Below, piece by piece: positions 27,778 through 35,538 of a DNA stretch of 64,000 bases; within the stretch, counting starts at the first letter, position 1, and each line of letters opens with the position of its first letter. Source of the stretch: Candidatus Eiseniibacteriota bacterium (lineage in GTDB: Bacteria > Eisenbacteria > RBG-16-71-46); contig OY970342.1 of NCBI GenBank assembly GCA_963717505.1, positions 3,296,001-3,360,000 of the forward strand. Direction: 5' to 3'. A model generated the notes under the pieces. The model was not told the DNA's origin. It was given only the letters and a program-made list of their open reading frames with translations, and made no database searches. The position numbers and the translations under genes are program-made.

Positions 27778-27935
27778 GCGGCGAGATCTCCCTTGGGTCT
27801 CGACGGGGTTTGCAGGACATCACCGCCGTGGGCCGGCGGCCGCGCACTCTATCGCACGCGGGCGGGTCTGAGATAGATTGGCGTCCTGGCGGCCGCGCAC
27901 CGCAAACCGTGCGCCGCCCAGGAAAGGAACCCGAC

Positions 27936-28700
27936 ATGAATCGACGACAGGCCCTCAGAAACCTCGCACTCGGATCCGCGGCGGTGGCGCTGGCCGGCGC
28001 CCAACGTGGGTTCGCCGACGCGCCCGCCACCCACGCAGCCGCCTCGAGTCCGCAAGCCGCGCCCGCGGCCCCGACCGCCGCGGGACCGTTCACGGTGCCA
28101 GCGCTCGGCTACGCCTTCGACGCGCTCGAGCCCCATCTCGACGCCCAGACCATGCAGATCCACCACGACAAACATCACGCGGCCTACGTCACCAACCTCA
28201 ACAAGGCGGTTGCCGGCCGCAAGGAAGTCGAGGGCTGGAGCGTCGAACGGCTGGTTCGTGAGCTGACCGCGGTTCCGGAGGACATTCGCCCGGCGGTGCG
28301 CAATCACGGCGGCGGACACTGGAACCACTCGCTGCTCTGGACTTCGCTCAAGAAGGATGGAGGCCGCGAGCCGGACGCGGATCTCGCCAAAGCGGTCGGC
28401 GCCGCGTTCGGTAGCTTCGAGACCTGCCGCGAACGTTTCCAGGCGGCCGCCCTCGGGGTGTTCGGCAGCGGTTGGGCGTGGCTGTCGACCGACGCGAAGG
28501 GCGTGGTCCAGATCGAGACATCGCCCAACCAGGATTCGCCGTTGAGCTCGGGGCGCGTGCCGCTGATCGGGGTCGACGTCTGGGAGCACGCGTACTACCT
28601 CAAGTTCCAGAATCGGCGCGCCGACTATCTCGCCGCATTCGCCAATGTCATCGACTGGAGCGTAGTTTCGTTGCGCTACCGACAGGCGATGCAGGGCTGA
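27936..28700 (+). CDS. sodA: Fe/Mn superoxide dismutase (Mn-type signature) with twin-arginine signal peptide
   Basis: MNRRQAL Tat motif, HHDKHH, NHGGGHWNH, SPNQD, DVWEHAYY. Confidence 0.92.
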   Translation: MNRRQALRNLALGSAAVALAGAQRGFADAPATHAAASSPQAAPAAPTAAGPFTVPALGYAFDALEPHLDAQTMQIHHDKHHAAYVTNLNKAVAGRKEVEGWSVERLVRELTAVPEDIRPAVRNHGGGHWNHSLLWTSLKKDGGREPDADLAKAVGAAFGSFETCRERFQAAALGVFGSGWAWLSTDAKGVVQIETSPNQDSPLSSGRVPLIGVDVWEHAYYLKFQNRRADYLAAFANVIDWSVVSLRYRQAMQG

Positions 28701-30129: not shown

Positions 30130-30900
30130 CTACGCCGTCAGCGATCTTCCCAGCGCGTCCAGTCGCTCGGTCCAGTAGACCTTCATGCGCGCAGCGGACT
30201 CCTTGTCGGGCAGCTTGCCGTGCTGGATCTGCGCCGTACTCTTGCCGTCGCCTTTCGCGATCAGCCAGACCTCGACCGAACTGCCGTCTTCCCACGTCAG
30301 GCGCACCGATTTGTTCGCGGTCGCTTTGCGTACCGCGAGCCGAACGCGCGGCAGCCATTTTGCCCGCCCGCGCGCTTCAGCGAACGCCTCGTACAACGCT
30401 CCGACCGGCACCGGGAAGGTCCGGCTCTTGCTGGCTTCGAACGCGCCGCCCCGTCGCTGGCCAACCTCGCGCAGGCCGCGGATGCGCTCGTAGCCGACCG
30501 TGACGGCCTGGGCCCACCACCCCGGGACACCGTAGGTTTCATGGACGTAGGTGGCGATCTTTCGATGGGGCCAGTCGTAGGCCTTGGCGTAGTCGAGCGA
30601 CTTGACCCACTTGCCCCACGCACATCCGGTCCTGGTCTTGAGCGTGGCATCGCTCACGCCCGCGACCTTGGCGTAGTCGGCAGGTGAAACGCGGGTGAGA
30701 TTCGCGGCGGGAGGGGCCTTCTTCGCGCCGGCGCCCCGAGTCGTCACGGGAACGGACTTTCGAGCGGCGCTGACCTTCGGCGTCGTGGAACGGGCGGATT
30801 TCGGGGCATTGAGGATTTGCGCGCGGGCGGCGGTGTAGGACTCGCCCGTCTTCTGAATGCGCCGGCGCACGAGGCGCTTGAAGTCTTTTTGGGTCGGCAT
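30130..30900 (-). CDS. Hypothetical protein: basic N-terminal helical module, low-complexity linker, DUF4287-like middle and SRPBCC/START-like C-terminus
   Basis: MPTQKDFKRLVRRRIQKTGESYTAARAQIL; TG..W..W...LD...H..IA......GVPGWWAQAVTVGYER; SKSRTF...LYEAF...QH.KLPD...MK.YW...L. Confidence 0.8.
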   Translation of the reverse strand: MPTQKDFKRLVRRRIQKTGESYTAARAQILNAPKSARSTTPKVSAARKSVPVTTRGAGAKKAPPAANLTRVSPADYAKVAGVSDATLKTRTGCAWGKWVKSLDYAKAYDWPHRKIATYVHETYGVPGWWAQAVTVGYERIRGLREVGQRRGGAFEASKSRTFPVPVGALYEAFAEARGRAKWLPRVRLAVRKATANKSVRLTWEDGSSVEVWLIAKGDGKSTAQIQHGKLPDKESAARMKVYWTERLDALGRSLTA

Positions 30901-31064
30901 TGATGGATCCTTCTGGTTGAGCCACGGCCGCGCGCCCCCCAGCGGCGACGCTCCGAGGCGTCACCAAAAGTCTCGCATGCCGATCCGGGAGTTTGCCTCC
31001 CTTTGCCTCACGAGGATCCCTGCTGGGGAGGGATCGATGAGGTTGGGCGTGGACGATCGCCGAG
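30901..31064 (-). ncRNA. Candidate structured cis-regulatory leader RNA with pseudoknot
   Basis: Four to five helices plus a 7-bp pairing between a hairpin loop and the 3' segment, lying between a sigma70-like promoter and the SD/ATG of the 30900 gene (details in findings). Confidence 0.6.
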
Positions 31065-31069
31065 CCGCA

Positions 31070-31098
31070 ACTATGCTCCGGGGGACGCCGGGAAACAA
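31070..31098 (-). promoter_or_regulatory. Sigma70-like promoter for the leader RNA and the 30900 gene
   Basis: TTGTTT (31098-31093), 17 bp spacer, CATAGT (31075-31070). Confidence 0.55.
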
Positions 31099-31208
31099 GG
31101 GAAGATCGGGGGCAGGAAGCGGGTGCGCCGCCGGTGCTAACATCCGCCGGTCGACCCCAACCGCCAACCCAGACCCGGGCGCATCGCCCGCTTCATTCGA
31201 GGCCATCC

Positions 31209-31721
31209 ATGAGCACATCCATGAGCCCTCCCCGAACCATCTCGGAGTCGTTCCTGACCGAGCTCGATTCGGAGATGCCGACCACCCGCCGGCTGCTCGA
31301 GCGCGTCCCGAGCGACCGTGGATCGTGGAAGCCGCACCCGAAATCGTTCTCGCTCGGCCACCTGGCTCAACTGGTGGCACGGATGCCGGGCTGGCTGACC
31401 TTGACCATGAAGCAGACCCAGCTCGACCTGAGTGGCGCCCCCGCTTATTCGCTCGAGACCACGGAGACGCTGTTGTCCGAGTTCGACCGGTTGGTGAAGG
31501 AAGCCCGTGAAGTGCTCGCCGCCGCGAAGGACGAAGACTATGCGATTCCCTGGTCGCTGGCCGCGGGCGGCCATGTGCTGTTCACGCTGCCCAGACTTGC
31601 GGTGATGCGCCAGAACATCAACCATCTCATGCACCACCGCGGGCAGCTCACGGTCTACCTGCGATTGCTCGACGTGCCTTTGCCGTCGATCTACGGACCC
31701 ACGGCCGACGAGAAGTGGTAG
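31209..31721 (+). CDS. DinB/YfiT-superfamily (four-helix putative metalloenzyme) protein
   Basis: E...TRRLLERVP, WKPHPKSFSLGHLA, NHLMHHRGQLTVYLRLLDVPLPSIYGP. Confidence 0.9.
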   Translation: MSTSMSPPRTISESFLTELDSEMPTTRRLLERVPSDRGSWKPHPKSFSLGHLAQLVARMPGWLTLTMKQTQLDLSGAPAYSLETTETLLSEFDRLVKEAREVLAAAKDEDYAIPWSLAAGGHVLFTLPRLAVMRQNINHLMHHRGQLTVYLRLLDVPLPSIYGPTADEKW

Positions 31722-31771: not shown

Positions 31772-32047
31772 ATGAGCATCACAATCCACGTTCCGGGGGC
31801 GTTGCGCGACCGTTGCGGCGGCGCTTCCCAGCTCACCGTGTCCGCTCCGAGCGTGCGCGCCGCGCTCGACCAGCTGGAACTGAGTCACCCGTCCTTGTAT
31901 TTCGGCATCTGCGACGAAACCGGCGCGGTCCGTCGCCACATCAACGTTTTCGTCAACACATCCAACGTCAGGGACGGGGCCGGGCTCGAAACACCGCTGT
32001 CCCCCGGCGACGTCCTGACGATCCTGCCCGCCGTCTCAGGAGGCTGA
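31772..32047 (+). CDS. MoaD/ThiS-family ubiquitin-like protein
   Basis: 91 aa beta-grasp pattern, RRHINVFVN, C-terminal PAVSGG. Confidence 0.93.
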   Translation: MSITIHVPGALRDRCGGASQLTVSAPSVRAALDQLELSHPSLYFGICDETGAVRRHINVFVNTSNVRDGAGLETPLSPGDVLTILPAVSGG

Positions 32048-32049
32048 AC

Positions 32050-33162
32050 ATGTCGGAACGCGTGGTCCTCACGATTGGAACCAAGAAGGGGCTGTTCGTC
32101 GCGGAGTCGGCGAAGGCCCGGCGCAGCTTCACGCTGCGCGGACCGTACGGCGCCGGAGTGTCGGTCTATTCCAGCATGATCGACACTCGAGGCACGCCGA
32201 AGCTCTATGCCTCGAGCTGCAATCCCTTCTTCGGCATGAAGGTGCTGCGCTCGACCGACCTCGGCAAGTCGTTCAAGGAAACCAAGTCGGCGCCCGCGTT
32301 TCCCAAGGACGACGGCCGCGCCCTGATCAACATCTGGGCGCTGGAACCGGGTGCCGACCGCAAGGATCTGCTGTGCGGTGTCGAGCCCGCCGCATTGTTT
32401 CGAAGCGGCGACGGCGGCGACTCGTGGGAAATGGTCCCCGGCATCAGCAACCACGAGCACGCGCGCAAATGGCACCCGGGCAACGGCGGCCTGTGCATGC
32501 ACACCATCATTCGGGACGGCAAGCGCGTGCATCTCGGGATCTCGACCGGCGGCCACTACCTGAGCGAAGACGGCGGCACGAGCTTCAAGGCCTCCAACAA
32601 AGGCATCGGTGCCGGCTTCACGCCCGACCCGTACCCGGAATTCGGTCAGTGTGTGCACAAGATCGCCCGTCATCCGGACGCTCCGGGACGTCTCTACATG
32701 CAGAACCACGGCGGCTGGGCCAATTGGGACGGACCGGGAGGGCCGCGTCCGGGTATCGGCGTGCTGCGGAGCGACGACCACGGCAGGACCTGGCGGTCGA
32801 TCGCCGAGGGTCTGCCGTCGGATTTCGGCTTCCCGATCCTGGTCCATCCGCACGATCCCGACACGGTGTACGTCATGCCGCTCGAGCCGATGACGCGCAC
32901 CTGTCCCGGTGGCGCCCCCGCGGTGTGGCGCAGCGAGAACGGCGGCGACTCGTGGCGGCGCCTGGCCAAGGGACTGCCGAAGAAGCAGAGCTACTTCACG
33001 GTGCAACGCGATGCCATGGACATCGACGAACTCAAGACGCCTGCGATCTACTTCGGGACCACGACGGGCCAGCTTTGGATCGGGCGCGAGGGTGGTGAGG
33101 AGTGGAGCTGTGTGTTCGACGCGTTGCCGCCGATCCACAACGTGAAGGTCGGCCTGGTTTGA
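32050..33162 (+). CDS. Cytoplasmic BNR/Asp-box (sialidase-like) beta-propeller protein
   Basis: IGTKKGLF, GVEPAALFRSGDGGDSW, GQCVHKI, QNHGG, GLPSDFGFP; no signal peptide. Confidence 0.88.
   Translation: MSERVVLTIGTKKGLFVAESAKARRSFTLRGPYGAGVSVYSSMIDTRGTPKLYASSCNPFFGMKVLRSTDLGKSFKETKSAPAFPKDDGRALINIWALEPGADRKDLLCGVEPAALFRSGDGGDSWEMVPGISNHEHARKWHPGNGGLCMHTIIRDGKRVHLGISTGGHYLSEDGGTSFKASNKGIGAGFTPDPYPEFGQCVHKIARHPDAPGRLYMQNHGGWANWDGPGGPRPGIGVLRSDDHGRTWRSIAEGLPSDFGFPILVHPHDPDTVYVMPLEPMTRTCPGGAPAVWRSENGGDSWRRLAKGLPKKQSYFTVQRDAMDIDELKTPAIYFGTTTGQLWIGREGGEEWSCVFDALPPIHNVKVGLV

Positions 33163-33264: not shown

Positions 33265-35538
<2,274 letters not shown>

Follow-up and report, generated by a model that had tools for sequence, protein, structure and literature searches.

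A 64,000-nucleotide (nt) stretch of DNA from Candidatus Eiseniibacteriota bacterium (assembly GCA_963717505.1, contig OY970342.1, positions 3,296,001 to 3,360,000; here called the window) carries on its minus strand, from 31061 to 30906, a structured leader RNA of about 156 nt whose 3' end lies at the ribosome-binding site (RBS) of a 256-amino-acid (aa) open reading frame (ORF, 30130..30900). Comparison of this leader with its relatives points to a new and apparently undescribed family of cis-acting 5' leader RNAs, in which covariation supports two pseudoknots and which tracks a short motif at the N-terminus of the encoded proteins (the N-motif). An earlier note, made from the letters of the window, had inferred a conserved, novel, pseudoknotted cis-regulatory leader at this place, and this inference is supported; the coordinates and sequence of the element, its Shine-Dalgarno (SD) sequence and its start codon are as that note described them. 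Concerning function, we favor a translational operator that would be bound by the N-motif of its own product, and put the probability of this reading at about 0.45.

Structure and covariation of the leader

The family was described with a covariance model of 156 positions, R1, in which position 1 is window position 31061 (the window coordinate is 31062 minus the position). Helix P0 is included in R1; helix P1 and the kissing pair were left out of it. Covariation was counted over 56 pairs in 85 main-type sequences and compared with 500 shuffles and with slid controls. The elements of the leader are as follows, the percentages being those of paired cells.

30906..31061, minus strand: whole leader RNA (positions 1-156; R1 self-match of 183.7 bits)
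31061-58 with 31049-46, minus strand: hairpin P0, GGCG with CGCC (positions 1-4/13-16; 98.8% paired)
31051..31055, minus strand: 5' strand of P1 (positions 7-11), GAUCC in the family consensus and CGUCC in this genome
30982..30986, minus strand: 3' strand of P1, GGAUC (positions 76-80), pairing with 31055-51
31042-37 with 31011-06, minus strand: P2, which encloses P2b (positions 20-25/51-56; 86.1% paired)
31035-29 with 31021-15, minus strand: P2b (positions 27-33/41-47; 95.1% paired)
31022..31028, minus strand: 7-nt loop of P2b, CCCCAGC (positions 34-40), first kissing partner by covariation
30987..31001, minus strand: hairpin P3, GGGAG-GCAAA-CUCCC (positions 61-65/71-75; 100% paired in the 85 sequences)
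30971..30981, minus strand: linker; UCGGCAU (30983-30977) can pair with AUGCCGA at the start codon
30970-63 with 30917-10, minus strand: P4a, the anti-SD:SD helix (positions 92-99/145-152; 81.5% paired)
30959-53 with 30927-21, minus strand: P4b (positions 103-109/135-141; 93.0% paired)
30951-49 with 30932-30, minus strand: P4c (positions 111-113/130-132; 82.2% paired)
30947-44 with 30936-33, minus strand: P5 (positions 115-118/126-129; 91.0% paired)
30937..30943, minus strand: 7-nt apical loop of P5, GCUGGGG (positions 119-125), second kissing partner by covariation
30908..30914, minus strand: SD sequence AGAAGGA, from the sequence, partly within P4a

Overall 92.5% of the cells are paired, against 83.2% in the shuffles. 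Double-sided (compensatory) changes were found in 41 of the 56 pairs, a number matched by none of the 500 shuffles and compared with 16-22 in the slid controls, and compensatory cells numbered 474 versus 59-105 in the slid versions. Conservation and covariation among the leaders of homologues, on which the claim of the earlier note depended, are thereby borne out. The single-sequence fold is far less telling: its energy of -76.0 kcal/mol corresponds to z = -1.75 relative to dinucleotide shuffles, 11 of 200 of which folded equally well or better, and the opposite strand gave z = -0.39. The leader thus folds better than its shuffles, though only marginally, so that folding energy alone would be weak evidence and the support above chance comes from comparison.

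The 5' domain (positions 1-81) consists of a P0/P1 pseudoknot enclosing P2/P2b and P3, with nearly invariant junctions. The 5' strand of P1 lies in the loop of P0, so the two helices together form an H-type pseudoknot. The alignment was fitted to P0, which is part of R1, and two sequences carry the compensatory versions CGCG/CGCG and GGCC/GGCC. P1 is 96.0% paired in the 85 sequences and shows double changes in three of its five pairs although it was outside the model. Subfamilies use different versions of it (GAUCC/GGAUC, GACCC/GGGUC, GUCCC/GGGAC and GCCUC/GAGGC); in this genome the family register holds four pairs only, one of them G-U. Across subfamilies P1 was tested on strings (differences in P3 length shift the columns of a mixed-subfamily alignment), and a perfect match of at least 5 nt was present in 105 of 183 leaders paired with themselves versus 66 of 915 cross pairings. 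Within the domain, the CCUCA/UGAGG helix (31042-38/31010-06) stacked on GAUCCCU/AGGGAUC (31035-29/31021-15), as the earlier note had drawn it, corresponds to P2 on P2b, and all 7 pairs of the latter are compensatory. The GGGAG-GCAAA-CUCCC hairpin of that note is P3: in the main type four of its five pairs are invariant and the fifth varies one-sidedly (G-U/A-U), and variant subfamilies keep the hairpin with a changed sequence. Directly 5' of P3 lies a near-invariant junction, GGCAAAG, and the junctions CGCC-C/A-AACC and GGCAAAGGGG are near-invariant across all subfamilies.

The second pseudoknot is a kissing loop between P2b and the 3' part of the leader. The earlier note had seen that CCCCAGC (31028-22) can pair over a long range with GCUGGGG (30943-37), and the comparison confirms this as a 7-nt kissing loop, with covarying versions and swaps of whole loops. 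The pair is 99.4-99.8% paired in the 85 sequences with double changes in four of seven pairs, again from outside the alignment model. Versions encountered are CCCCAGC/GCUGGGG, CCCCCGC/GCGGGGG, UCCACGC/GCGUGGA, CUCACGC/GCGUGAG and CCGUCC/GGACGG, as well as CCCCGGC/GCCGGGG, CCCCGAC/GUCGGGG, CCUCAGC/GCUGAGG and UCCCGGC/GCCGGGA. Like P1, the kissing pair is swapped wholesale among subfamilies with complementarity retained. In 180 of 192 leaders the 3' part of the same leader holds a perfect complement of at least 7 nt; the cross-pairing control gave 336 of 960, a figure that is too high because words of one class, when shifted, were scored as different. The idea that paralogues within one genome use orthogonal kissing loops is unsupported, since two of the three copies in one genome (G211) use a nearly identical pair.

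Helices P4a to P5 make up one long 3' hairpin, 30970..30910 (positions 92-152), in which all 22 pairs are compensatory. Its sequence and length differ among subfamilies that nevertheless retain the 5' domain and the kissing pair. On the comparative evidence, about half of the helices in the earlier note are replaced by P0, P1 and this hairpin. Three of that note's pairings were counted in the 85 sequences, namely the CGAUC/GAUCG register (31059-55/30985-81), the hairpin GGUGACGC/GCGUCGCC (30965-58/30951-44) and the alternative CGCCC/GGGCG. None is conserved: jointly they are 65.0% paired versus 64.5% when shuffled, with a covariation of 0.095 versus 0.096. The CGAUC/GAUCG register, which conflicts with P0, may be a local alternative in this genome. 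The CUCG/CGAG helix (31064-61/30975-72), which was not among the pairings counted, lies outside the family consensus and begins upstream of 31061, where the sequence is unconserved.

Extent, distribution and coupling to an N-terminal motif

A DNA search of 40 relatives retrieved the leader in three other genera at about 81% nucleotide identity over some 155 nt, directly upstream of the orthologous gene, whose protein there is 62-72% identical. Conservation begins abruptly at 31061 and continues to the start codon; farther upstream only two promoter-like hexamers are conserved:

31093..31098, minus strand: -35-like TTGTTT, from the sequence, below the threshold of the consensus scan
31070..31075, minus strand: -10-like CATAGT, 17 nt past the -35-like hexamer, with a predicted start at about 31061-31063

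In four relatives CATAGT is aligned with GATAGT, CATGCT, CATAGT and CAGAAT. Promoter positions were then counted in 83 loci, each with 60 nt of upstream sequence. Hexamers of the form NANNNT gave 84 counts at -15..-12 from RNA position 1 compared with about 2-3 per other position, and TTG gave 63 counts at -38..-35. Because of these enriched positions we predict that transcription starts at about 31061-31063, within a base or two of RNA position 1. The promoter TTGTTT-N17-CATAGT and the start of the earlier note fit this positional pattern; the consensus scan at the locus, on the other side, returned 0 promoter-like sites.

The leader occupies a spacer of about 300 nt between two divergent genes, the 256-aa ORF (30900 to 30130, minus strand) and a DinB-family gene. 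The latter (31134-31721, plus strand) shares the intergenic region of the leader in an arrangement that is not kept elsewhere; regulation shared with it (31134/31209..31721) was ruled out, flanking genes varying among loci. The next gene in the window converges on ORF 30130..30900, and for that reason the transcription unit looks monocistronic. The leader is single-copy in its own 4.16-Mb genome, which rules out a repeat or mobile element, and a protein-coding leader was ruled out by indel lengths that are not multiples of three and by the compensatory base changes.

Within the family R1 matched 5 of 89 genomes. A pattern for the P3 region, with about 19.5 specified bases, was scanned against one genome per prokaryotic species, with at least 120 stretches matching, and at least 120 metagenome stretches matched another pattern, written for the P2 variant that carries a C-G pair. 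From each scan 80 loci among the matches listed were taken, and all 80 of those from the genome matches listed gave a full-length R1 match (45.8-130.5 bits). By the taxon names in record titles, the carriers belong to Gemmatimonadota, Acidobacteriota (Thermoanaerobaculia, Vicinamibacterales), Krumholzibacteriota, Planctomycetota, Actinomycetes, Chloroflexi and Eiseniibacteriota, and include one Moorena assembly. No Rfam 15 family matched at its gathering score anywhere in the window, in keeping with the novelty claimed by the earlier note. Relaxing the E value to 10 over 30800-31300 gave no more than three matches, at 13.9-16.9 bits versus cut-offs of 37-55, and nothing matched at the element in 20 main-type and 12 variant loci. 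Searches of the literature, with subscription papers and supplements outside their scope, gave no description linking the RNA or the N-motif to anything, and a term search in the main text of PMC5737381, as distinct from its motif-listing supplements, gave no match.

The gene behind the leader has the following parts.

30820..30900, minus strand: start codon and N-motif, residues 1-27 (alignment A10)
30130..30900, minus strand: 256-aa ORF with N-motif, disordered linker, DUF4287-like helical domain and SRPBCC/AHSA1-like domain (family scan and predicted structure)

The N-motif reads M-[PT]-x-x-K-x-[LF]-K-x-x-[VI]-R-x-R-x-x-K-T-G-E-x-Y-x-x-A-R and always starts at residue 1. Residues K8, R12, R14, E20, Y22, A25 and R26 are invariant in the 37 diverse sequences of alignment A10, and residues 1-27 are the best-conserved part of the window product. 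AlphaFold2 predicted two N-terminal helices, 5-18 and 22-31, at a predicted local distance difference test score (pLDDT) of about 95, and the motif is strongly basic. After these helices the window product is disordered over residues 32-72 and continues with a DUF4287-like domain of five helices and the SRPBCC/AHSA1-like domain; structural comparison ranked bacterial Aha1-type proteins highest. Short proteins made up of the motif alone fell into 32 clusters, mostly single sequences, compared with 535 clusters of normal length, and may be fragments.

The coupling between RNA and motif is close. An N-motif ORF follows 83 of the 85 R1 matches, the exceptions being a locus cut by a contig edge (L071) and a decayed copy (L081). 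In the 80 metagenome loci the motif was found by regular expression in 69 and by eye in five more (two of them damaged); five of the remaining loci are at contig ends and one is rearranged. Five whole genomes from five differently labelled lineages hold 6 motif genes and 6 RNA matches, each RNA directly upstream of a motif gene and none elsewhere. In one actinobacterial class (22 genomes) 29 motif genes occur in 12 genomes, with the RNA at 29 of 29. In a sample of 206 genomes of the window's own phylum, 11 genomes gave 12 motif matches between them. Eleven of these matches have the RNA; the twelfth is spurious and falls within a reading frame that is unrelated. In six related genomes, on the other hand, the DUF4287-SRPBCC homologues had neither an N-motif match nor the RNA (with filters off, the best score was 12.7 bits), and three such motif-less homologues read by eye have a different N-terminal start. 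Behind the RNA we found three C-terminal architectures, DUF4287 + SRPBCC in the majority, BtrH_N + DUF4872, and TPR-containing, with the N-motif as their only common part. Because the three architectures share the motif only and motif-less homologues lack the RNA, the RNA tracks the N-motif rather than the remaining protein. Flanking genes showed no recurrent family among the 80 ORFs scanned of 126 listed.

Several individual loci are worth recording. The decayed copy, L081:2969-3083 with 300 nt downstream, has P0 and the first junction of its 5' domain broken and a short tandem duplication in place of the 3' domain; it has no motif gene, and a gene for what by eye is a PadR-type-like regulator comes next. 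At L056, L116, L208 and L256 the leader is intact and the motif ORF is truncated or frameshifted; these ORFs may be pseudogenes or assembly errors. Some actinobacterial genomes have up to 4 motif genes with a leader each, and one metagenome contig has two leaders about 10 kb apart (L206:4207-4350 and L206:14115-14256). A cyanobacterial assembly titled Moorena bouillonii PNG5-198 (L121, an 8.26-Mb contig) holds one leader and motif gene, and is a possible cultured carrier.

Such strict 1:1 pairing with the N-motif, and the nested double-pseudoknot architecture, would also suit an RNA that is no regulator at all, such as a functional ribonucleoprotein in which the RNA is a cofactor or assembly platform for the motif protein, or a self-cleaving or processed RNA. 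The RNA matches no Rfam 15 ribozyme family, however, and the covarying SD pairing indicates translation control; we regard this explanation as improbable.

Predicted translational control and the candidate effector

The anti-SD:SD helix P4a has compensatory changes in all 8 of its pairs. In computed ensembles the mean unpaired probability of the region -14..+3 is 0.295 for native leaders versus 0.467 when the upstream sequence is shuffled, and the native value is the lower in 140 of 150 leaders. The start codon may be involved as well. RNAalifold pairs it with the linker in 4 of 4 close relatives, and RNAduplex gave a mean z of -1.81 for the P1 3' strand and linker against the start-codon region (152 leaders, 62.5% below -1). 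A further alternative, the G-rich 5' strand of P3 against the anti-SD, reaches 92-99% standard pairs. Neither the start-codon pairing nor this one has covariation of its own. The consensus scan found 0 terminator-like sites (hairpin plus U tract) in 30700-31400, where a transcription attenuator would have its terminator hairpin and U tract. Since the RBS is part of a helix that covaries and the interval scanned lacks any terminator-like site, control is predicted to act at translation through an RBS that is occluded in silico; of the two modes named by the earlier note, translation or termination, it is the former that the data favor.

Burial of the RBS in the predicted ground state and a hairpin at the predicted 5' end would be compatible with an element that acts independently of any ligand, setting a low translation rate, protecting the 5' end, or sensing temperature or ionic conditions. 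Yet thermometers and stability hairpins need neither two covarying pseudoknots nor junctions conserved across phyla, and a thermometer is a simple SD hairpin with little conservation, which the two pseudoknots and invariant junctions of this leader are not. The exclusive tie to the N-motif would also be left unexplained, and we think this unlikely to be the answer.

The main rival is an orphan riboswitch, in which the 5' double-pseudoknot domain would bind a small molecule or ion that favors kissing-loop docking and the RBS-sequestering hairpin; the N-motif would then be unrelated to sensing, for instance a DNA-binding or interaction module. The RNA has a conserved structure backed by covariation (41 of 56 pairs, 0 of 500 shuffles), as an aptamer would, a complex conserved fold with near-invariant junctions in all subfamilies, and a variable 3' part beside a persisting 5' domain and kissing pair, which recalls an aptamer with its expression platform. 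The SRPBCC fold of the most frequent product is a ligand-binding one, and pairing of the P3 5' strand with the anti-SD could provide an alternative state, although this pairing is expected from G-richness alone. Against this, the RNA is seen only before motif genes, which have three unrelated C-terminal architectures; at about 190 assessable loci it never precedes a transporter or biosynthetic gene; no association with pathway or transport genes and no conserved neighbourhood were found; and motif-less SRPBCC homologues are without it. We therefore consider a riboswitch possible and the less probable of the two.

The earlier note had left riboswitch and autoregulation side by side. Because the RNA follows the N-motif and not any pathway, we now lean to autoregulation: the N-motif of the product would bind the leader of its own mRNA, which would act as a translational operator, and this is the simplest mechanism in accord with all of the observations. 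The proposed binder has the RNA on its own mRNA, with a single copy per gene (6 of 6, 29 of 29 and 83 of 85), and occlusion of the RBS is seen in silico in the covarying anti-SD:SD helix and in 140 of 150 leaders. The transcript is predicted to begin at the first base of the RNA, and the 3' hairpin pairs the anti-SD with the SD sequence, the adjoining linker being able to pair with the start codon. The apical loop of this hairpin kisses the P2b loop and so docks the hairpin onto the 5' domain. In the mechanism that we propose, the basic two-helix N-motif of the encoded protein would bind the 5' domain once folded, or else the kissing complex, and lock the RBS-sequestering form, giving negative feedback on translation. 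The comparison shows the RNA with its helices and both pseudoknots, a start placed by the promoter, the pairing of the RBS and the strict tie to the N-motif; that the N-motif is the effector, and that its binding represses, we infer.

A more specific form of autoregulation, which we consider doubtful, would make leader and N-motif a co-translational, cis-acting feedback unit. The N-motif is followed by a disordered linker of about 40 residues, and it would fold outside the exit tunnel with the ribosome still on the same mRNA. Freshly folded, it would bind the kissing-loop/pseudoknot domain of its own mRNA and close the RBS, so that few proteins would be made per transcript. The unit would be a portable module that became attached to the bodies of three or more unrelated proteins.

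Several points weigh against autoregulation or against the evidence on which it is built. Leader and N-terminal coding segment are adjacent and could be co-inherited in domain shuffling, in which case their co-occurrence would reflect linkage and not function. The N-motif is called RNA-binding from its charge and predicted shape; a profile search of the PDB found no detectable relative in solved structures (best E = 8.3), and no Pfam relative was found, the atlas clusters giving one unnamed 37-aa cluster at 0.78. The predicted ligand-free fold already buries the RBS, so the need for a repressor is not obvious, and near-invariant unpaired junctions with a double pseudoknot are equally typical of metabolite aptamers. 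A look-up of RNA sequencing runs covering this stretch listed none, so the start site is placed by promoter-position statistics across relatives. Finally, the scan patterns were derived from the RNA itself and 80 of at least 120 stretches were returned per scan; the association with the gene is independent of these patterns.

Surroundings, meaning and known systems

Three other places in the window were noted. A ThiS-family small protein (31772-32047, plus strand) is encoded directly upstream of an ORF of about 370 aa (32050-33162, plus strand), and the two may form a small operon. By eye, the ORF at 27810-28700 (plus strand) resembles iron/manganese superoxide dismutase with a long twin-arginine-like N-terminal extension, and the 757-aa ORF at 33265-35538 (plus strand) resembles a serine/threonine protein kinase whose C-terminal half is TPR-like.

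A large and elaborate RNA class, with an H-type pseudoknot and an intramolecular 7-nt kissing loop, would be added to the bacterial cis-regulators, and one that is common in soil and sediment lineages poorly sampled by current family libraries. The tie to the motif across three architectures raises the question whether a very small N-terminal module is a portable RNA-binding autoregulator. For hundreds of proteins of the DUF4287/SRPBCC, BtrH_N/DUF4872 and TPR types that are still uncharacterised, it would also be a first clue to function. Were the effector a metabolite, the leader would count as an orphan riboswitch that is new and is unusual in the genes it accompanies.

Among known systems, autoregulatory leaders occur on the mRNAs of ribosomal and other RNA-binding proteins, the S15 and L20 pseudoknot operators being examples. 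Our leader shares with them a structured, often pseudoknotted 5' leader of one gene, one copy per gene, action on the RBS and, here by analogy, the product as the proposed effector. It differs in that it matches no Rfam leader family, that its product is not ribosomal, and that the putative binding module is a 27-residue N-motif without known relatives that occurs in three architectures. The purine, ZTP and guanidine-II riboswitches rely on long-range loop-loop or pseudoknot contacts. Common to them and to our leader are conserved junctions, a tertiary contact joining two subdomains, sequestration of the SD sequence and greater variability in the 3' part than in the 5' part. Unlike them, the leader is below threshold for every Rfam 15 riboswitch model and is tied to a peptide motif and not to a pathway, and complementarity between its two 7-nt loops is complete, so that no ligand should be needed for the kiss to form. 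The kissing complex of ColE1 RNA I and RNA II is stabilised by the helical-hairpin protein Rop. Our system likewise has 7-nt loops that are fully complementary, and its kiss may also be stabilised by a small helical-hairpin protein, whereas here the kiss is within one mRNA and there is no sequence relation; the likeness is a lead only.

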